Virus record (IMG/VR): IMGVR_UViG_3300017917_003521
DNA: 64,000 nucleotides
Source of the DNA: a virus
Taxonomy: Duplodnaviria; Heunggongvirae; Uroviricota; Caudoviricetes
Strand: one strand, 5' to 3'
The position numbers were made by a program, and so were the translations under genes. This document shows, one piece after another, positions 51,301-60,444 of the stretch (its first letter is position 1; each line of letters starts with the position of its first letter). The notes under the pieces were generated by a model. The model saw only the letters and a list, made by a program, of their open reading frames with translations. It was not told the DNA's origin and did no database searches.

Positions 51301-51872
51301 TGTTATCTTACCAAGATATTTTAAATCTTATTAAAGAATCTGATTTCACACTTGTTGGTTATACCTTCAAGGATGAAAGAATTAAAGATGAATTACTTTC
51401 TAATTTTAACTATGTTGAGATTGAAAAAGTCAATTCGTCTTTTTCTTTTAAATCATTTTTAAGAGACCTTAAACTAGAATCTTTATTAGAAAATAAGTCT
51501 GTAAAAAATCCAGAGTATATTCTTTTAGATATTAATAATATAAGATTTGAAGAAAAGGATAGTTTAGGTGGTAGACAAAGAGTTATTAGAAGTTTTGTTG
51601 AAAATCTTAGAAGTCAATTATATACAGATTATTCTGAATTTCCTGGAAGTTCTCAATTTAAAGTTATTCTAACATCTTCTTTATATAGAAGTGGTGTAAA
51701 TTCTAATAATGATGGTATTAATAATTTCAGTGGGGGAAGTGGTCCAATTTATTCTTCTGATTTAGCTTTGACTATAATTGATAATAAGATTACAATAATC
51801 AAGAATAGATTTGGCAACAATGGTGATGAAATAGTATATAAATTTCAAGAAAATTTAACTACATTTGCATAA
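51300..51872 (+). CDS. hypothetical protein
   Basis: 190-aa ORF. Confidence 0.4.
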   Translation: MLSYQDILNLIKESDFTLVGYTFKDERIKDELLSNFNYVEIEKVNSSFSFKSFLRDLKLESLLENKSVKNPEYILLDINNIRFEEKDSLGGRQRVIRSFVENLRSQLYTDYSEFPGSSQFKVILTSSLYRSGVNSNNDGINNFSGGSGPIYSSDLALTIIDNKITIIKNRFGNNGDEIVYKFQENLTTFA

Positions 51873-52306
51873 TGAAAATTACAACAAATAGAAAAGCATA
51901 TTACGAGTATTTTGTGTTGGAAGAATTCAACGCAGGAATTATGCTATTAGGTAGTGAAGTTAAATCTATTCGTGATGGTAACGTAACCATTACAGACTGT
52001 TTTGCTTATATTTCAAATGGTGAAATTTTCGTAAAGAATATGAAAGTTGCTAAATACAAACAAACTCATATTTTTGAAAAGCATGATGAAAATCGTGATA
52101 AAAAAATTCTTCTTAATAGAAAAGAGATAGATAAAATAGAAAAACTTTTACAAGATAAAGGTACAACTATGGTTCCTTTAGAAATATTTACCTCACATAA
52201 TAGAATCAAAGTTAAGATTGGTGTTGTAAAAGGCAAGAAGCTATACGATAAAAGAGAAACTATTAAAAAGAGAGATATCGAAAGAGAAATCCGCCGTAGC
52301 GTCTAA
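51872..52306 (+). CDS. smpB: SsrA-binding protein SmpB
   Basis: 'NRKAYYEYFVLEEFNAGIMLLGSEVKSIRDGNVTITDCFAYISNGEIFVKNMKVAKY' matches the SmpB N-terminal core, and the C-terminal basic tail is present. Confidence 0.75.
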   Translation: MKITTNRKAYYEYFVLEEFNAGIMLLGSEVKSIRDGNVTITDCFAYISNGEIFVKNMKVAKYKQTHIFEKHDENRDKKILLNRKEIDKIEKLLQDKGTTMVPLEIFTSHNRIKVKIGVVKGKKLYDKRETIKKRDIEREIRRSV

Positions 52307-55854: not shown

Positions 55855-56028
55855 TATAAAATAAATCAAAAGAGACAAAAACTTTTTAATATATAAACAA
55901 ATGAGAACATTTAATACACATAAACATTTTAGTAAATCGAATAAGTGGTTTAGCAACCAGTTCGGTACTGAAAGTGTATTGCTCTCAAATAAGATGTAAC
56001 AAATCTATTTATACAAGACAATATTCAA

Positions 56029-56067
56029 AAGTCCGAACTTAACAAAAAGTTCGGACTTTTTTGTTTT
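56029..56067 (+). terminator. strong hairpin plus T-tract immediately upstream of first tRNA array
   Basis: AAGTCCGAACTT / AAGTTCGGACTT perfect 12-bp stem, 7-nt loop, then TTTTTTGTTTTATATGG. Confidence 0.55.
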
Positions 56068-56071
56068 ATAT

Positions 56072-56158
56072 GGTGTCGTTATTGTTAACGGAGAGTCGCA
56101 AGACGAGCATCTGGCTCTGTGAAAGCCAGGGTACGGGTTCGAATCCCGTACGACACCC
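56072..56158 (+). tRNA. aberrant tRNA-like gene (87 nt) with His-type GUG anticodon arm, encoded G-1:C73 and extra nucleotides in the D-region
   Basis: Hand fold. G-1 sits on the GTGTCGT/ACGACAC acceptor with discriminator C. The 3' two-thirds are perfect: TGGCT-CTGTGAA-AGCCA, then GGGT, then ACGGG-TTCGAAT-CCCGT. About 30 nt lie between the acceptor and anticodon stem, against about 20 in a canonical tRNA. Confidence 0.4.
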
Positions 56159-56164
56159 AAACAA

Positions 56165-56237
56165 GGAACCTAAGCTAATCAGGTGAAAGCACTGGACTGA
56201 AAATCCAGGGAGCCCGGATCGTTACCGGGAGGTTCCA
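56165..56237 (+). tRNA. tRNA-Phe(GAA)
   Basis: GGAACCT/AGGTTCC acceptor. Anticodon arm CTGGA-CTGAAAA-TCCAG, T-arm CCCGG-ATCGTTA-CCGGG. 73 nt. Confidence 0.65.
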
Positions 56238-56244
56238 CTAAAAT

Positions 56245-56318
56245 GGTGAATGTAGCTCAATCGGTAGAGCGTTGGTTTGTGGAGCCAAAGGCAGCGGGAT
56301 CGTAACCCGTCATTCACC
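56245..56318 (+). tRNA. tRNA-His(GUG) with encoded G-1
   Basis: G-1 then GTGAATG/CATTCAC, discriminator C. D-arm GCTC-AATCGGTA-GAGC. Anticodon arm TTGGT-TTGTGGA-GCCAA. Confidence 0.7.
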
Positions 56319-56323
56319 CAAAA

Positions 56324-56395
56324 GGAGACTTAGCTGAGACGGTTTAGCGTCTGGTTGAAGCCCAGAAGAGGTCGGTTCGATTCCGGCAGTCTCCA
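56324..56395 (+). tRNA. tRNA, anticodon GAA by hand fold (second Phe-like; G37)
   Basis: GGAGACT/AGTCTCC acceptor. Anticodon arm TCTGG-TTGAAGC-CCAGA, T-arm GTCGG-TTCGATT-CCGGC. 72 nt. Confidence 0.5.
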
Positions 56396-56401
56396 CAAAA
56401 T

Positions 56402-56483
56402 ACAGGTACTCATTGGTGTGACCAGCCGGTTCCAACCCGGTAATTCGTAAGAGTGGCTGTAGGTTCGAGTCCTACTACCTGTG
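56402..56483 (+). tRNA. aberrant tRNA-like gene (82 nt) with Trp-type CCA anticodon loop and 17-nt variable region
   Basis: ACAGGTA/TACCTGT acceptor. Anticodon arm CCGG-TTCCAAC-CCGG, T-arm GTAGG-TTCGAGT-CCTAC. The D-region is non-canonical. Confidence 0.4.
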
Positions 56484-56498
56484 CTAAAAGACAAACCT

Positions 56499-56569
56499 AC
56501 GGGTGTGGTGAAATGGTATCATGACGGTCTCCAAAACCGTTGTTCTTGGTTCGAGTCCAGGCACCCGTG
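56499..56569 (+). tRNA. tRNA-Trp(CCA)
   Basis: ACGGGTG/CACCCGT acceptor. Anticodon arm ACGGT-CTCCAAA-ACCGT, T-arm CTTGG-TTCGAGT-CCAGG. Confidence 0.65.
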
Positions 56570-56614
56570 CAAAATGATTAAGATGATGAAAACTAAGTTG
56601 AAATATAAACGCTA

Positions 56615-56645
56615 GGCAACGACCAAATGAATACGGGTCGTTGCC
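56615..56645 (+). repeat. perfect 10-bp-stem hairpin (GGCAACGACC / GGTCGTTGCC, 11-nt loop) inside tRNA array spacer
   Basis: Inverted repeat read directly from the sequence. It lies between tRNA-Trp and tRNA-Lys and has no T-tract on the + strand. Confidence 0.5.
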
Positions 56646-56657
56646 ATTAAAAACAAT

Positions 56658-56730
56658 GATTCCGTAGCTCAATTGGTGGAGCTTCCGGCTTTTAACCGGA
56701 AGGATGTGGGTTCGAGTCCCACCGGGATCA
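56658..56730 (+). tRNA. tRNA-Lys(UUU), canonical type I
   Basis: GATTCCG/CGGGATC acceptor, A73. D-arm GCTC-AATTGGTG-GAGC. Anticodon arm TCCGG-CTTTTAA-CCGGA, the same loop as E. coli tRNA-Lys. T-arm GTGGG-TTCGAGT-CCCAC. 73 nt. Confidence 0.8.
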
Positions 56731-56739
56731 CTAAATATT

Positions 56740-56826
56740 GATTCTGTCGCTTAGTGGCTATAGCAACTGGCTTTTAACCAGTAGAGATAATGTTCTCAAC
56801 CGTGGGTTCGAGTCCCACCAGGATCA
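56740..56826 (+). tRNA. type-II-like tRNA (87 nt) with Lys anticodon UUU, A73 and 19-nt variable arm
   Basis: GATTCTG/CAGGATC acceptor. Anticodon arm ACTGG-CTTTTAA-CCAGT. Variable arm A-GAGA-TAATGT-TCTC-AACC. T-arm identical to the canonical Lys gene. Confidence 0.55.
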
Positions 56827-56832
56827 CAAAAC

Positions 56833-56916
56833 ACTCCTGTCGCTCAGAGGCCGAGAGCAACTGGCTTTTAACCAGTAGACGAAAGTCCATCGTAGGTTCG
56901 AATCCTACCAGGGGTA
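56833..56916 (+). tRNA. type-II-like tRNA (84 nt) with Lys anticodon UUU, A73 and 15-nt variable arm (GAC-GAAA-GTC)
   Basis: ACTCCTG/CAGGGGT acceptor. D-arm GCTC-AGAGGCCGA-GAGC. Anticodon arm ACTGG-CTTTTAA-CCAGT. Variable AGACGAAAGTCCATC. T-arm GTAGG-TTCGAAT-CCTAC. Confidence 0.55.
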
Positions 56917-56921
56917 CAAAT

Positions 56922-57006
56922 GACTCCGTTTCCGTAGAGGCCGAACGGTTCTGACTCTTAATCAGATGACGAAAGTCCACCGTGGGTTCGAATCCCACCG
57001 GGGTCA
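56922..57006 (+). tRNA. type-II-like tRNA (85 nt) with Lys anticodon CUU, A73 and 15-nt variable arm (GAC-GAAA-GTC)
   Basis: GACTCCG/CGGGGTC acceptor. Anticodon arm TCTGA-CTCTTAA-TCAGA. Variable TGACGAAAGTCCACC. T-arm GTGGG-TTCGAAT-CCCAC. Confidence 0.55.
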
Positions 57007-57009
57007 CAA

Positions 57010-57068
57010 ATTGAAACTAAAAACTAAAAAGTAATTTTTTAGATAATTTTATAGTTTTTAGTTTTAAT
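57010..57068 (+). repeat. AT-rich nested inverted repeat downstream of tRNA array
   Basis: AAACTAAAAACTAAAAAG pairs with AGTTTTTAGTTTT, and an inner CTAAAAAG / TTTTTTAG pairing lies inside it. Confidence 0.4.
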
Positions 57069-57092
57069 ATATACATGAAATAAAATATATTT

Positions 57093-57641
57093 TTGTGTAT
57101 GAAAGAAGAAATAATTAAACTAATAAATGAGGGTTTTACATATGATGATATTACTAAAAAATTAGGTTGTTCTAAAAGTACAATATCTTATCATTGTAAT
57201 AAATTAAATTTAAAAAGTAAAAGTAAAAATATAGATGTAAATAGTGAACTTGTAAATAAAATTAACGAATTGTATAAATGTGGAAATAGCTCTTATACAA
57301 TATCAAAAATTTTAGGAATTTCAAAAAGTACAGCTCTTAAATATATTAGTAAAGAAAATATAAGGACTAAGAAAAAAACTAAAACTAAAAAGGATAAGTC
57401 CGAATACATAATGAGATGGAAGAAAAATCTTAAAAAGAGTTTAGTTGAATACAAAGGATCTAAATGTGAAATTTGTGGATATGATAGATGTATAGAGGCT
57501 TTAGAATTTCATCACTCTGATCCAAGTAAAAAGGATTTTTCAATATCTACAAAATTATTTGGAATTGAAAAAATGAAAAAAGAAGTAGATAAATGTTTAC
57601 TGTTATGTTCTAATTGCCATAGAGAAAAACATTATTTATAA
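57093..57641 (+). CDS. HNH homing endonuclease with N-terminal HTH repeats
   Basis: C-terminal 'CEICGYDRCIEALEFHHSDPSKKDF...LLCSNCHREKH' is an HNH motif. It lies between the two tRNA arrays. Confidence 0.6.
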   Translation: MCMKEEIIKLINEGFTYDDITKKLGCSKSTISYHCNKLNLKSKSKNIDVNSELVNKINELYKCGNSSYTISKILGISKSTALKYISKENIRTKKKTKTKKDKSEYIMRWKKNLKKSLVEYKGSKCEICGYDRCIEALEFHHSDPSKKDFSISTKLFGIEKMKKEVDKCLLLCSNCHREKHYL

Positions 57642-57649
57642 TAAAATTA

Positions 57650-57779
57650 GGGGATGTAGCTCAGTGGTAGAGTTTAAAATATCTCTTTTGAGGTTTTACC
57701 TTGAAAAAGTGTTGATTAAAAGAGTTACTTCGTTTGAATTGAAATCAAAAGGTCGTTGGTTCGAATCCAACCATCCCCG
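57650..57779 (+). tRNA. tRNA-like gene with 59-nt insertion between D-arm and anticodon stem; type-I scaffold, anticodon UGA, G73
   Basis: 5' part GGGGATG-TA-GCTCAGTGGTAGAGT. 3' part TTTGA-ATTGAAA-TCAAA, AGGTC, GTTGG-TTCGAAT-CCAAC, CATCCCC-G. The acceptor pairs perfectly. The 59 nt at 57674-57732 form their own hairpin (CTCTTTT...AAAAGAG). Confidence 0.4.
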
Positions 57780-57790
57780 CTAAAAAAATA

Positions 57791-57822
57791 TTTGTAAATC
57801 TCAGAAAAAAGATTTACTTTTG
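57791..57822 (+). promoter_or_regulatory. Bacteroidetes-type promoter (TTTG ... TACTTTTG) upstream of second tRNA array
   Basis: TTTG 57791-57794 and TACTTTTG 57815-57822 with a 20-nt spacer. Confidence 0.45.
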
Positions 57823-57964
57823 TAGAAACAAAGAATAAAAAATTAATATATAATAAAGTTATGAAAACAATTATGCTTACATCGAAGTCGTCAAGTAGTC
57901 GCTCGTCAAAAACGAGTGAGGTTCGATCGTATTCATAATAGTCGTATAAATAAGATATTATGTA

Positions 57965-58000
57965 AACCCTTCGAACCAAAAGTTTGAAGGGTTTTTTGTT
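57965..58000 (+). terminator. strong hairpin plus T-tract immediately upstream of second tRNA array
   Basis: AACCCTTCGAAC...GTTTGAAGGGTT stem, then the same trailing motif TTTTTTGTTTTATATGG as at 56056. Confidence 0.55.
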
Positions 58001-58006
58001 TTATAT

Positions 58007-58079
58007 GGTTCCATCGTCCAATTGGACAGGACACTCCGCTACGAACGGAGAAATGAGGGTTCGAATCCTTCTGGAACTA
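58007..58079 (+). tRNA. tRNA-Arg(ACG)
   Basis: Acceptor GGTTCCA/TGGAACT (G1-U72). D-arm GTCC-AATTGGACA-GGAC. Anticodon arm CTCCG-CTACGAA-CGGAG. T-arm GAGGG-TTCGAAT-CCTTC. Confidence 0.65.
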
Positions 58080-58084
58080 CAAAT

Positions 58085-58168
58085 GGAGAAGTAATTTGGC
58101 CGGCGCCAAACACAGTCTTGAAAACTGCTGGTACCTTCGGGTATGGGGATCGACACCTCACTTCTCCG
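58085..58168 (+). tRNA. tRNA-Ser(UGA), type II, G73
   Basis: GGAGAAG/CTTCTCC acceptor. Anticodon arm ACAGT-CTTGAAA-ACTGC, the same loop as E. coli Ser UGA. Variable arm TGG-TACC-TTCG-GGTA. T-arm TGGGG-ATCGACA-CCTCA. Confidence 0.6.
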
Positions 58169-58173
58169 CAACC

Positions 58174-58256
58174 GGAAGGAGTCCGAATGGACGAGGACAC
58201 CGCCTTGAAAGCGGCTGGGTCGAAAGGCTTTGGGGGTTCGATTCCCTCTTCTTCCG
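58174..58256 (+). tRNA. tRNA-Ser(UGA), second copy, type II, G73
   Basis: GGAAGGA/TTCTTCC acceptor. Ser-like D-arm TCC-GAATGGACGA-GGA. Anticodon arm ACCGC-CTTGAAA-GCGGC. Variable arm with GAAA loop. T-arm GGGGG-TTCGATT-CCCTC. Confidence 0.55.
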
Positions 58257-58261
58257 CAACT

Positions 58262-58347
58262 GGAGAGTAAACTAGTCAGGGTACTAGCACCGCCTGCTAA
58301 GCGAGTGGCACGGTAAAACGTGTGAGTTTCGAATACTCTGCTCTCCG
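58262..58347 (+). tRNA. tRNA-Ser(GCU), type II, G73
   Basis: GGAGAGT/GCTCTCC acceptor. D-arm CTAG-TCAGGGTA-CTAG. Anticodon loop CTGCTAA. Variable arm CACG-GTAAAA-CGTG. Confidence 0.55.
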
Positions 58348-58354
58348 CTAAATT

Positions 58355-58440
58355 GGAGAATAAACTGATGAGGTCATCAGCCACGCCTGGAAAGCGTCGG
58401 GTACGTTCAATCGTATGGGTTTCGAGTACTCTGTTCTCCG
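58355..58440 (+). tRNA. tRNA-Ser(GGA), type II, G73
   Basis: GGAGAAT/GTTCTCC acceptor. D-arm CTGA-TGAGGTCA-TCAG. Anticodon loop CTGGAAA. Variable arm TACG-TTCAAT-CGTA. Confidence 0.6.
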
Positions 58441-58458
58441 CAACAAATAATAAATAAT

Positions 58459-58767
58459 ATGGAAGCAATTTACACAAGATTCTCAAGAAGAGAGACATCG
58501 TTTGAAAACACATTAATTCTTTTACAAGAATTGTTAAATGAAAGATTGTTACCAGATTACAAAAGAATTTGGGTTCAAGCTTCTAATTCCGGTAGAACAA
58601 GATTCTGCTTTACTATATTTCCTAATACAGGACAATATACTATGAGATTCCTAGATGCTGGCTCTTTTAGACAATTCAGAACAGATGGTAATTTAGAGGA
58701 AGAAATAGACTTAATAGAGAGGTTTATAGATTCTTTAAGATCTAATACACTAAATGGTGTTATATAA
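58459..58767 (+). CDS. hypothetical protein
   Basis: 102-aa ORF followed by a bidirectional terminator. Confidence 0.4.
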   Translation: MEAIYTRFSRRETSFENTLILLQELLNERLLPDYKRIWVQASNSGRTRFCFTIFPNTGQYTMRFLDAGSFRQFRTDGNLEEEIDLIERFIDSLRSNTLNGVI

Positions 58768-58794
58768 AAAAGAGGCATTTGCCTCTTTTTTTTA
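58766..58794. terminator. bidirectional intrinsic terminator
   Basis: AAGAGGC / GCCTCTT stem flanked by A6 and T8. Confidence 0.6.
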
Positions 58795-60444
58795 ATATAC
58801 TTTTCTTAAAACAAACATAGTGGAATATATTATGTTACTTGTACTTGCTGTGTTCCACTCTGCTGTGATACTTAATGTATTAGATATTGTTGTATCAAAT
58901 GTTGTACTATTTATAGTACTAAAATCAGAACCCTCAAGTGTTACACCTGAGTCCTTAATATAAGTAAATGCACCTGAAGATGCTATAACTGCTATACCAG
59001 CCGGACCTACATTTCTTATTGTAAATAAAACCTCGACATTCCAGTTTCTATCTGTTGATGTATCTAAGTCTATAGCTCCCGTATCTGCAAATAAAACACC
59101 AGCGATTGTTTTTATTCTAATAGTAAGAGTAGCTGTACCTAAACATGATATTTTACCAGCCATTCTCAAGAAATAACTATCACCTATAGCAAAATTATTT
59201 GCCGGAACTGTATAAGCCCCAACTCCTGTACCAATTAAACTTGTTTCAACTACTGTGTTTGTTATGGTATTTCCATTTGATGTTTGAGCAAATAATCCAA
59301 CTGGTGGTGTTGATCCTGATGTACCTGATGAACCGGATGTTCCACTTGTTCCTGATGAACCGCTAGTTCCTGATGAACCGCTAGTTCCTGATGAACCTGA
59401 TGAACCATCAGCTCCAAAAAGTGAATAACTAATTGAATATGTTTTTGTATCTTGATAATTACCTACTGAACCAGATATAAATGAAACATTTAGTTGAATA
59501 TATGTTGTGTTATCGACCGATGAAGTAACAGAATATAAGCCAAAACGAGATGTATCTTCAATATCTGTTATTTTTATATGAGCCTTTGAGTTATAAGAAT
59601 TTACATAATCATTAAGAGATAACAACCAATTATATACATTTGTTGAATTTAAATCATTTATATTAATATAAATTACTGTAGATGAATTTATAACTGGAGT
59701 ATCTGTGTCAAATCCTTGACTTGAAGAACCCACACTACCTAACGAATATATCCATCTTAAACTATTAGACCCATCTAAACCACTAGATCCTTGAGATCCT
59801 TGAGCACCACTTGTACCAGAAGATCCAGATGTACCACTAGACCCTGAAGTACCAGAAGATCCAGCCGAACCAACAGTACCTGATGTTATCCATCCTATAG
59901 AATAACTACTACCACTGGTTACTGAACCATTATATGATATCATCGTACAACTAAAATCCCAGAAAGTTCCTAGGTCATTAGAAGTCATTACTTGAAATAT
60001 AGCGTAATTGTTAGGTGAACCAGCCTCTGATATTTGTAAATATCCTTGTCCTGAATATAGTGATATATAAGTACCTAATGATGATAACCAGTTCTGAGCA
60101 TTACCATTTGCTGATGTATAGTTTATTTTGACATTATTAGAGGGTGATGATAAAGGTCCTGTTAAACTAAACTGACCATTTACTGTTTCAAGTCCATTTA
60201 CCCATCTTAAATTATTAGATCCATCTGCACCTTGTGCACCATTAACACCTGAAGTTCCACTGGATCCTGAAGTTCCACTTGATCCACTTGATCCTGTTCC
60301 TGCACCTGAACCTACTTCAGATACGGTTCCTGTGTCTGTTTTTATTCTAAGTTTTCCATCTAGGTCTAGTGCTAATAAAATACCAGATGATGGAGTTGGT
60401 GCTCCTGTAACATCGATATATGTCGAAAATAAAATTGAACTCAT
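58792..60444 (-). CDS. collagen-like repeat (GSSGTSG) fiber protein
   Basis: Three blocks of 'GSSGTSGSSGTSG' triplets within a 550-aa S/T/N-rich protein, paralogous to the repeats in 2-943. Confidence 0.55.
   Translation of the reverse strand: MSSILFSTYIDVTGAPTPSSGILLALDLDGKLRIKTDTGTVSEVGSGAGTGSSGSSGTSGSSGTSGVNGAQGADGSNNLRWVNGLETVNGQFSLTGPLSSPSNNVKINYTSANGNAQNWLSSLGTYISLYSGQGYLQISEAGSPNNYAIFQVMTSNDLGTFWDFSCTMISYNGSVTSGSSYSIGWITSGTVGSAGSSGTSGSSGTSGSSGTSGAQGSQGSSGLDGSNSLRWIYSLGSVGSSSQGFDTDTPVINSSTVIYININDLNSTNVYNWLLSLNDYVNSYNSKAHIKITDIEDTSRFGLYSVTSSVDNTTYIQLNVSFISGSVGNYQDTKTYSISYSLFGADGSSGSSGTSGSSGTSGSSGTSGTSGSSGTSGSTPPVGLFAQTSNGNTITNTVVETSLIGTGVGAYTVPANNFAIGDSYFLRMAGKISCLGTATLTIRIKTIAGVLFADTGAIDLDTSTDRNWNVEVLFTIRNVGPAGIAVIASSGAFTYIKDSGVTLEGSDFSTINSTTFDTTISNTLSITAEWNTASTSNIIYSTMFVLRKVY

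Follow-up and report, generated by a model that had tools for sequence, protein, structure and literature searches.

Introns of bacterial tRNA genes belong to group I or group II and, in a 2026 survey, lie in the anticodon loop, with the exception of one group II intron in the D loop (PMC13011429). Archaeal non-canonical introns, including the transposed introns of the Thermoproteales, occur at positions such as 22/23, 25/26 and 29/30 and have spread between isoacceptors (PMC4090602). The subject of this analysis is a phage tRNA gene of 130 nucleotides (nt) with the anticodon UGA (positions 57650-57779), which is interrupted by an insertion of about 58 nt that separates the D arm from the anticodon stem. 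The gene lies in a 64,000-nt stretch of DNA (the window) from the Caudoviricetes record IMGVR_UViG_3300017917_003521. Positions are those of the window, and loci from other records are numbered with the prefix L.

Introns of groups I and II resemble this insertion in that they interrupt bacterial and phage tRNAs, frequently escape annotation tools and are in some cases accompanied by genes for HNH or other homing endonucleases (PMC13011429). They differ from it in being self-splicing, at least about 200 nt long and situated in the anticodon loop, whereas the phage insert has no P1-P9 core. It ends in U, follows a 5' exon ending in G, lies in a stem and matches no Rfam intron, unlike a group I intron; its size and ends and the lack of an Rfam match likewise set it apart from group II introns, which comprise six domains and hundreds of nt and are bounded by GUGYG...AY. 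The initial annotation had called the insertion too short for a group I intron and unusually placed for any bacterial tRNA intron, and at 58 nt within a stem it does fall outside everything in the survey (PMC13011429). Archaeal bulge-helix-bulge (BHB) introns would be the closest functional analogue, being likewise short (tens of nt), placed in stems and present in several isoacceptors, with removal that depends on protein in archaea. The phage module differs in consisting of a hairpin of two helices (P1 and P2) followed by UUACUU, with no splice-site motif, and its hosts are bacteriophages. Type II tRNAs, allo-tRNAs and tRNA-Sec-like forms also bear an extra helix on a tRNA core; their extra arm lies between 44 and 48 and is retained, whereas the phage module is on the opposite strand, inside a helix.

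Exons of the interrupted gene

The locus is almost certainly a genuine interrupted tRNA gene whose insertion is under selection at the RNA level, as judged by comparing it with its relatives. Every tRNA part named in the initial annotation (acceptor stem, D arm, UGA anticodon arm, T arm and G73) was found in the sequence: a 7-bp acceptor stem, a D arm, a 5-bp anticodon stem with a 7-nt loop (U33; purine at 37), and a T arm containing GTTCRANYC. No CCA is encoded at the 3' end. When the exons were joined in silico, the product was detected by ARAGORN up to -ps118, compared with 114-122 for the neighbouring tRNAs; at default settings, no gene was called by ARAGORN at 57650-57779. The Rfam tRNA model (RF00005) covered just the 3' part of the gene in the window (57708-57779; 30 bits, gathering score 29). 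End-to-end matches above the gathering score, with the insert accommodated as an insertion, were obtained for a relative (L100; 129 nt, 39.5 bits) and for an Erwinia phage gene described below (46.5 bits). The minimum free energy structure of the whole gene, calculated with RNAfold, was a cloverleaf with an extra arm (-32.3 kcal/mol, z = -2.2). Chance and assembly artefact were ruled out by the homologues and by a 1173-bp contig, identical to the window locus, in an independent assembly (Logan SRR5831666).

Covariation was measured, and RNAalifold run, on the columns of an alignment of 26 sequences (A2). When no structure was supplied, RNAalifold recovered the acceptor stem, the D stem, P1, P2 and the T stem. 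The acceptor stem also covaries in A2. The anticodon stem covaries among relatives, occurring as UUUGA/UCAAA and as UAUAU/AUAUA.

The insertion and its relatives

Relatives were retrieved from IMG/VR with a pattern made up of the D arm, UUGAAA and the T loop only, separated by a gap of 45-75 nt, with no insert sequence specified. This returned five contigs of 134-476 kb, all five of which carried a clearly homologous insert, some together with a different but compensating anticodon stem. Patterns built on the insert core then gave 59 metagenome contigs, including marine assemblies, and 10 viral contigs. The family thus comprises 58 distinct sequences at 70 loci, and every true match lies inside a tRNA gene. 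No match to the insert-core pattern was obtained in 185,579 bacterial and archaeal species (one genome each), BLAST of the insert found no copy in 50,697 GenBank phage records, and no second copy was found by BLAST within the window. These comparisons firmly support assignment of the insertion to a phage-specific family.

The proposed structure paired 95.5% of the A2 cells, compared with 45-52% when the partners were slid by 1-3 columns, and the observed covariation score was reached by none of 500 shuffles. P1 comprises nine pairs (94% of cells paired), three of which show changes on both sides. G-U pairs are frequent in this helix, so only the tRNA-sense strand can form it. In the window, P2 consists of ACCUU (57698-57702), a GAAA tetraloop (57703-57706) and AAG-U-GU (57707-57712) with U57710 bulged. 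One of its pairs (A2 columns 55/64) occurs as CG, UA and GC, and its loop is of the GNRA type in most relatives (GAAA, GUAA, GCAA or GUGA). The hairpin CTCTTTTGA/TTAAAAGAG lies within the insert. Folded alone, the insert could not be distinguished from shuffled sequence (z = -0.6), and the significance of the structure therefore rests on comparison and not on energy.

The constancy of the RRYUUU/UGA internal loop and of UUACUU is due in part to the way in which members were retrieved; it also holds in the five homologues found independently of the insert. A GUUACUU tail and the architecture are retained by two divergent relatives, L138 (Arg) and L146, where two copies lie side by side (Cys and Asn). 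A covariance model of the insert family (R1) scored these independent members at 78 and 62.6 bits (the two copies in L146) and 69.8 bits (L138); the score of 150 bits for the window is that of a training sequence. The UUACUU tail could pair with GGUAG of the D loop in all members, where both are invariant and covariation is uninformative. Two further candidate elements were rejected: a conserved helix between the 5' linker and the UUACUU tail (P0) fits certain Lys and Asn members and is not family-wide, and a kink-turn in the internal loop gave no consistent fit when the alignment was checked by eye.

A search of the Rfam covariance models had been suggested with the initial annotation, and no family matched the insertion. 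In cmscan of 55900-58800 with E up to 10, the sole match beyond the tRNA models was a chance match to a small nucleolar RNA (18.8 bits), and in five related loci (E up to 0.5) there was no other Rfam family and no ribozyme. The self-cleaving ribozymes covered by these scans included hammerhead, twister, twister-sister, pistol, hatchet and hepatitis delta virus (HDV)-like/theta forms.

On the scaffold of the window gene (GGGGAUG...), the anticodon is UGA in the majority of relatives and UGG or UGC in the rest. That a type I scaffold should bear UGA had been noted as odd, and it is so. The long variable arm of type II tRNAs, which in bacterial tRNA-Ser is the determinant for SerRS, is missing; the variable loop is of 5 nt (AGGUC), and position 73 is G in the window and A in many relatives. 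The same module occurs in tRNA-Lys(UUU), between exon sequences CACG and GAU, in tRNA-Asn(GUU), between CACG and CGG, and in tRNA-Gln(UUG), between GCU and CGU. The Lys, Asn, Gln, Cys and Arg members have canonical 7-nt loops with U33, a purine at 37 and sensible anticodons. The carrier anticodons UGA, UUU, GUU, UUG, UGG and UGC read codons ending in A or U, as expected for a genome with a G+C content of 30%, the value for the window. Carrier loci are syntenic phage tRNA clusters. The main arrangement is Phe-His-Trp-Lys-Lys-Lys(CUU), the interrupted tRNA, then Arg(ACG)-Ser; others are Asp-Pro(UGG), an interrupted UGG or UGC tRNA, then Gln, and Cys-Asn, interrupted Gln, then His. As a separate observation, Lys and Asn members (L064, L073, L056, L070 and similar) have a conserved G-1 opposite C73 and therewith an 8-bp acceptor stem. 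G-1 opposite C73 is a hallmark of tRNA-His identity, found here on Lys and Asn anticodons.

Position of the junctions

Judged on the window alone, junctions at 24/25, 25/26 and 26/27 were equal, as all spliced forms were detected by ARAGORN up to -ps118; they differ by a shift of at most 2 nt. Comparison with homologues favours 24/25, inside the D stem, which would place the insertion at 57673-57730 and make C57731 and G57732 nucleotides C25 and G26. The CG that follows UUACUU was read in this way because G10-C25 is then re-formed and the usual G26 accounted for. An A follows GAG in most relatives and cannot pair with G10, which argues for the 24/25 junction. C25 and G26 are the canonical partners of G10/G45 and A44 in the textbook tertiary pairs, given the AGGUC variable loop. 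Of the initial placement between the D arm and the anticodon stem, the general location was kept and the junction at 26/27 was replaced by 24/25. In the Lys, Asn and Gln members the insert lies between 28 and 29, and pairs 27:43 and 28:42 form across it. The predicted spliced junction in the window joins GGUAGAG directly to CGUUUGA, or, written further, GGUAGAG to CGUUUGAAUUGAAA. The parts of the gene and of the insertion are listed in Table 1.

Table 1. Positions of the interrupted tRNA gene, its insertion and the adjacent HNH gene in the window
Feature	Position	Strand	Basis or remark
HNH endonuclease gene, free-standing, not part of the insert	57099-57641	+	Pfam helix-turn-helix (HTH) hits; 47 relatives
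5' exon	57650-57672	+	Sequence; acceptor covariation in alignment A2; ARAGORN call on in silico spliced form
Acceptor 5' strand GGGGATG	57650-57656	+	Pairs 7/7 with CATCCCC at 57772-57778
U8 A9	57657-57658	+	Sequence
D stem 5' strand GCTC	57659-57662	+	Sequence
D loop AGTGGTA	57663-57669	+	Sequence
D stem 3' strand GAG (G22-G24)	57670-57672	+	Sequence
Conserved insertion, 58 nt (placement favoured by comparison)	57673-57730	+	Homologous insert in 58 distinct sequences at 70 loci, only inside tRNA genes
5' linker, A/U-rich	57673-57682	+	Sequence and length (8-11 nt) variable in relatives; alignment A2
P1 5' strand CUCUUUUGA	57683-57691	+	Pairs with 57716-57724; covariation in A2; RNAalifold
Internal loop, 5' side, RRYUUU	57692-57697	+	Conserved in A2; unpaired by RNAalifold
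P2 hairpin	57698-57712	+	Pair covariation in A2; GNRA-type loop in most relatives
Internal loop, 3' side, UGA	57713-57715	+	Invariant in A2, partly forced by the search pattern
P1 3' strand UUAAAAGAG	57716-57724	+	Covariation in A2
Conserved 3' tail UUACUU	57725-57730	+	In all members, including the five found without insert sequence
3' exon	57731-57779	+	Sequence; anticodon-stem covariation; Rfam tRNA match at 57708-57779
C25 G26 (favoured reading)	57731-57732	+	Comparison with homologues
Anticodon stem TTTGA/TCAAA	57733-57737 with 57745-57749	+	Sequence
Anticodon loop ATTGAAA	57738-57744 (anticodon UGA, 57740-57742)	+	Sequence
Variable loop AGGTC (5 nt)	57750-57754	+	Sequence
T arm GTTGG/TTCGAAT/CCAAC	57755-57771	+	Sequence
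Acceptor 3' strand CATCCCC	57772-57778	+	Sequence
Discriminator G (G73)	57779	+	Sequence

Short inserts in other phage tRNA genes

IMG/VR was also searched with a pattern that was indifferent to the insert (TAGCTCAGTNGGTAGAGC, 50-80 nt, GGTTCGA). At least 120 loci were obtained and, among the matches listed, 93 had an intact acceptor stem and T stem, most of the inserts that a simple parser could interpret lay at 28/29 or 29/30, and the tRNAs affected had Ser(GCU), Ile, Pro, Arg, Asn, Cys, Gly and Thr anticodons. Phage tRNA genes commonly contain short inserts (25-65 nt) between the D and T arms (L122-L241, IMG/VR). Covariance-model searches returned tRNA-like matches of 115-170 nt in gaps of several loci that had been retrieved through the HNH gene.

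A second large insert family, located at 28/29, begins with an A-rich segment, followed by a hairpin and an ACAGCAA motif; position 29 covaries with 41 in this family (L143 compared with L149). It includes a gene of a cultured Erwinia jumbo phage, pEa_SNUABM_50 (MT939488, 295747-295868), which is annotated as tRNA-Lys(ttt), is 122 nt long, has 46 nt inserted at 28/29 and has an HNH gene as its neighbour. The predicted spliced junction joins ...GAGCAGG to GCACUUUUAA.... Upstream of this tRNA-Lys, at a distance of 1.2 kb, is another interrupted tRNA, which is unannotated (the two are at 295-420 and 1498-1619 of L242). The Erwinia gene and its IMG/VR relatives resemble the window gene in combining a canonical tRNA with a 40-55-nt insert whose 5' end is A-rich and which contains a hairpin and, on its 3' side, a conserved single-stranded part, and in being located beside an HNH gene in a cluster of phage tRNAs. 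They differ in belonging to another insert sequence family (a hairpin, then ACAGCAA), and the record annotates the gene simply as tRNA-Lys. No published analysis of the interrupted Erwinia tRNA-Lys was found, and a full-text search of the literature turned up no account of phage tRNA genes with short insertions other than those of group I. The family of the window gene thus appears to be part of a broader and apparently undescribed set of 40-65-nt inserts at 28/29 in phage tRNAs. A different arrangement was observed in L201, L234, L198, L145, L218 and L219, where the anticodon loop is replaced by a conserved segment of about 33 nt (CCUCCCUCAUGG...AAGGGCCAAAACGCCGGGA).

Fate of the insertion

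The following sequence of events is proposed. The transcript would carry a self-folding module (A/U-rich linker, P1, asymmetric internal loop, P2 with its GNRA loop, and UUACUU tail) in the strand that runs from the 3' half of the D stem into the 5' half of the anticodon stem. A protein endonuclease of phage or host would recognise the module and the flanking A/U-rich single strands and cut at both ends. An RNA ligase would then join the exons, kept together meanwhile by the acceptor stem and such stem pairs as remain, to yield a 72-nt type I tRNA reading UCA/UCN; the hairpin released may itself have a function. We infer the removal, the enzymes involved and the amino acid that the tRNA would carry, and the account as a whole, an interrupted tRNA gene with a module that is removed by a protein endonuclease before ligation, is given about an even chance of being correct. 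Removal is favoured by the excellent tRNA that the exons make, by the pairing kept across the insert, by the disruption of helices contacted by the ribosome, and by the many affected isoacceptors with proper anticodon loops. The D stem/anticodon stem site is where the ribosome contacts tRNA in established structures, which argues for removal before decoding.

Several points weigh against removal. To our knowledge, no bacterial or phage enzyme splices such inserts, and Pfam scans of 31 open reading frames (ORFs) of the window gave no candidate RNA ligase or splicing endonuclease. The insertion site differs by scaffold (24/25 or 28/29), and the 3' junction floats, following UUACUU in Asn, Gln and window-scaffold members, UUACUUC in Lys members and UUACU in L138. 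Further, conservation of the insert equals or exceeds that of the anticodon arm, members with the window scaffold often have a 4-bp anticodon stem and an 8-9-nt loop, and the identity elements that a Ser, Pro or Ala tRNA should have are missing from the GGGGAUG scaffold. Comparison with related loci had been proposed at the outset; 70 loci with the insert were found, and two IMG/VR scans for an insert-free allele of either scaffold returned only unrelated tRNAs.

Alternative explanations

The main rival explanation is that the insert is a retained domain. The 58-nt module would never be removed, and the tRNA body would serve as a scaffold for a small functional RNA, providing folding, processing by RNase P/Z and stability. 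The module could then act as a protein-binding hairpin, a decoy, a sponge or an extra arm recognised by a synthetase, with no ordinary decoding. This is considered unlikely, while deserving appreciable weight. The conservation of the insert relative to the anticodon arm, the irregular stems and loops of many members, the use of UGA, UGG and UGC on one scaffold that has no Ser, Pro or Ala identity elements, and the failure to find insert-free alleles all speak for it, as do the G-1:C73 of the Lys and Asn members and the GNRA-capped arms that the same phage clade adds to the variable region of tRNA-Lys. The T4 tRNA cluster, moreover, encodes stable tRNA-like RNAs of unknown function, the species 1 and species 2 RNAs (rnaC and rnaD) of 119-139 nt, which are partly tRNA-like and are annotated inside the cluster beside the homing endonuclease gene segB. 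These RNAs differ from the window gene in having no sequence similarity to it and a far less complete cloverleaf. Against retention, the 24/25 and 28/29 sites project differently and are hard to reconcile with one three-dimensional role, and canonical loops and sensible anticodons persist in the Lys, Asn, Gln, Cys and Arg members. Transfer RNAs with 4-bp anticodon stems are functional in bacteria (PMC13092985), which makes loop irregularity weak evidence for a retained domain.

The gene immediately upstream encodes an HNH protein of 180 aa with two N-terminal HTH domains and the HNH domain at the C-terminus, and it stops 8 nt short of the interrupted tRNA. A link between the two had been implied initially. 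If they formed a collaborative homing unit, the HNH protein would cut insert-free tRNA alleles and the insertion would protect its own gene, in the way that free-standing endonucleases adjoin ORF-less group I introns. The 8-nt spacing fits this, as do the HNH gene beside the interrupted Erwinia tRNA-Lys and the joint absence of HNH gene and interrupted tRNA from megaphage LR745206 (L002), which lacks the whole stretch corresponding to about 57010-57800. The co-occurrence counts largely refute it. Direct adjacency was found at one of the 70 loci, that of the window, with a homologue 0.8-2.8 kb away at five others, and in most relatives the interrupted tRNA comes straight after tRNA-Lys(CUU) with no HNH gene. 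Conversely, 47 HNH relatives in IMG/VR lie mostly between tRNA genes, usually ordinary uninterrupted ones, with the tRNA starting about 20 nt downstream, and the HNH family is thus placed between tRNAs with or without the insertion. Given adjacency at one locus in 70, the HNH neighbour is regarded as incidental; independence of the insertion from the HNH gene is firmly supported and a homing unit is very unlikely. By analogy, the HNH gene is a free-standing homing endonuclease of the kind found as segB in T4 and as HNH genes in T5, which it resembles in sitting between tRNAs and in its sporadic occurrence in relatives; the likeness concerns the neighbour and not the insertion. In clusters with related HNH genes (L003-L007 and L027), ARAGORN reported tRNA-Asn, Gln, Met, Phe and His of 86-91 nt that contain extra sequence. 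These tRNAs normally have no long arm.

Excision of an archaeal-type intron at a BHB by a splicing endonuclease is highly improbable. Archaeal introns do occur at 22/23, 25/26 and 29/30 with near-identical copies across isoacceptors (PMC4090602), and a 4-bp helix, GUAG (19-22) with UUAC, can be drawn in the window with 3-nt flanks cut between AG and U and between UU and C. As measured by the published definition of the motif (PMC4090602), however, this helix is bare, its flanking helices being absent, and it cannot be drawn in the Lys, Asn or Gln members, where the 5' junction is 4 nt further along. The relatives, in addition, are megaphages with bacterial-type features (sigma-70 factor, SmpB), and no match was found in archaeal or bacterial genomes.

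Equally improbable is a dead gene or DNA-level element, that is, a tRNA pseudogene holding junk DNA, or a hairpin of the IS200/IS605-like or repetitive extragenic palindrome (REP)-like kind. The insert contains TTGAT and TTAC, which we take to be IS200/IS605 target motifs, and it is not significant when folded alone; compensatory changes run through both exons and insert across a conserved family, there is no constant flanking target (the exons end in GAG, CACG or GCT), the insert is single-copy in the window and found solely inside tRNA genes, and the GNRA bias of its loop points to a role as RNA. ARAGORN -i reported a tRNA-Glu(UUC) whose anticodon loop would hold a 48-nt intron (57681-57728, at 33/34), together with a 16-nt variable region; this parse is close to untenable and was rejected as contradicted by the homologues, as it needs an A.G mismatch in an anticodon stem that cannot form in them (e.g. 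L052, L054 and L055), has no nucleotide 26 and scores -ps106 compared with -ps118 for the reading with the covarying UGA arm.

Implications of the proposed removal

Extended from the window gene to phages at large, removal by cutting and ligation would mean that phages carry a new class of short (40-65 nt), structured, non-group-I tRNA introns, placed in stems (24/25 here, mostly 28/29), that spread between tRNA genes and are excised to leave a hairpin that may serve as a small RNA. This generalisation is put forward tentatively, at a little under an even chance. If true, it would be the first case in the bacterial world of tRNA splicing that depends on protein, whether encoded by phage or host. 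The sequences imply either an RNA cut-and-join pathway during infection or the use of tRNA bodies as scaffolds for small structured RNAs. The module of the window is found in about 70 phage contigs and related inserts at 28/29 in many more, including the culturable Erwinia phage. ARAGORN at default settings and Rfam at its gathering score miss or truncate interrupted genes, so phage tRNA repertoires are under-counted, and gaps in phage tRNA clusters are mis-annotated when such genes are missed.

Setting of the gene and other features of the cluster

The tRNA cluster of the window (56165-58255, + strand) has 70-77% nucleotide identity to the uncultured megaphages LR745206 (L002) and LR756502 (L001), which are 634-642 kb in size. 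Pfam scans of the window ORFs identified a sigma-70 factor, SmpB, YqeY, an S1-domain protein, an NAD-dependent DNA ligase and Sir2, and the window also encodes DnaJ and an SbcC-like ATPase, a set of functions typical of huge phages. The SmpB ORF is at 51872-52306 (Pfam E = 9.5e-53); no transfer-messenger RNA gene was found anywhere in the 64-kb window despite the phage-encoded SmpB. Directly after the tRNA cluster, on the - strand (58792-60444), is an ORF of 550 aa with long collagen-like GSSGTSG repeats, which is probably a fibre protein. In LR756502 the matching gap in the tRNA cluster (L001, 2036-2755) holds a 239-aa ORF similar to class I aminoacyl-tRNA synthetases; it is short, has HIGN and KMSKS motifs and resembles TrpRS or TyrRS.

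Three tRNAs with Lys anticodons (56740-56827, UUU; 56833-56917, UUU; 56922-57007, CUU) have variable arms that are long and type-II-like (11-14 nt), with a GAAA loop in two cases, and are conserved in the L001 and L002 megaphages. A long arm is unusual on tRNA-Lys and may reflect phage-specific charging or evasion of tRNA-targeting nucleases. Three further tRNAs, at 58085-58168, 58174-58255 and 56401-56483, were missed by ARAGORN and matched the Rfam tRNA-Sec model below its gathering score (43.4, 36.8 and 29.7 bits). The fold of the first comprises 8 bp in the acceptor stem, 6 bp in the D stem (loop of 4 nt), 5 bp in the variable arm and 4 bp in the T stem, an 8/4 architecture like that of allo-tRNA or tRNA-Sec, with the anticodon UGA (Ser).

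Between the interrupted tRNA and tRNA-Arg, a conserved non-coding element (57859-57996) forms a nested hairpin of about 90 nt (z = -3.6) with the terminal pairing UUAUGAA/UUCAUAA; next comes a terminator-like hairpin with a U run. The element, possibly a small RNA, occurs too in the megaphage without an interrupted tRNA (L002, 4143-4275). Several tRNAs of the phage clade, in the window at 56165-56319 and in the L073 and L056 clusters, have the non-canonical T loop GGAUCGUAACC instead of GGUUCGAAUCC.

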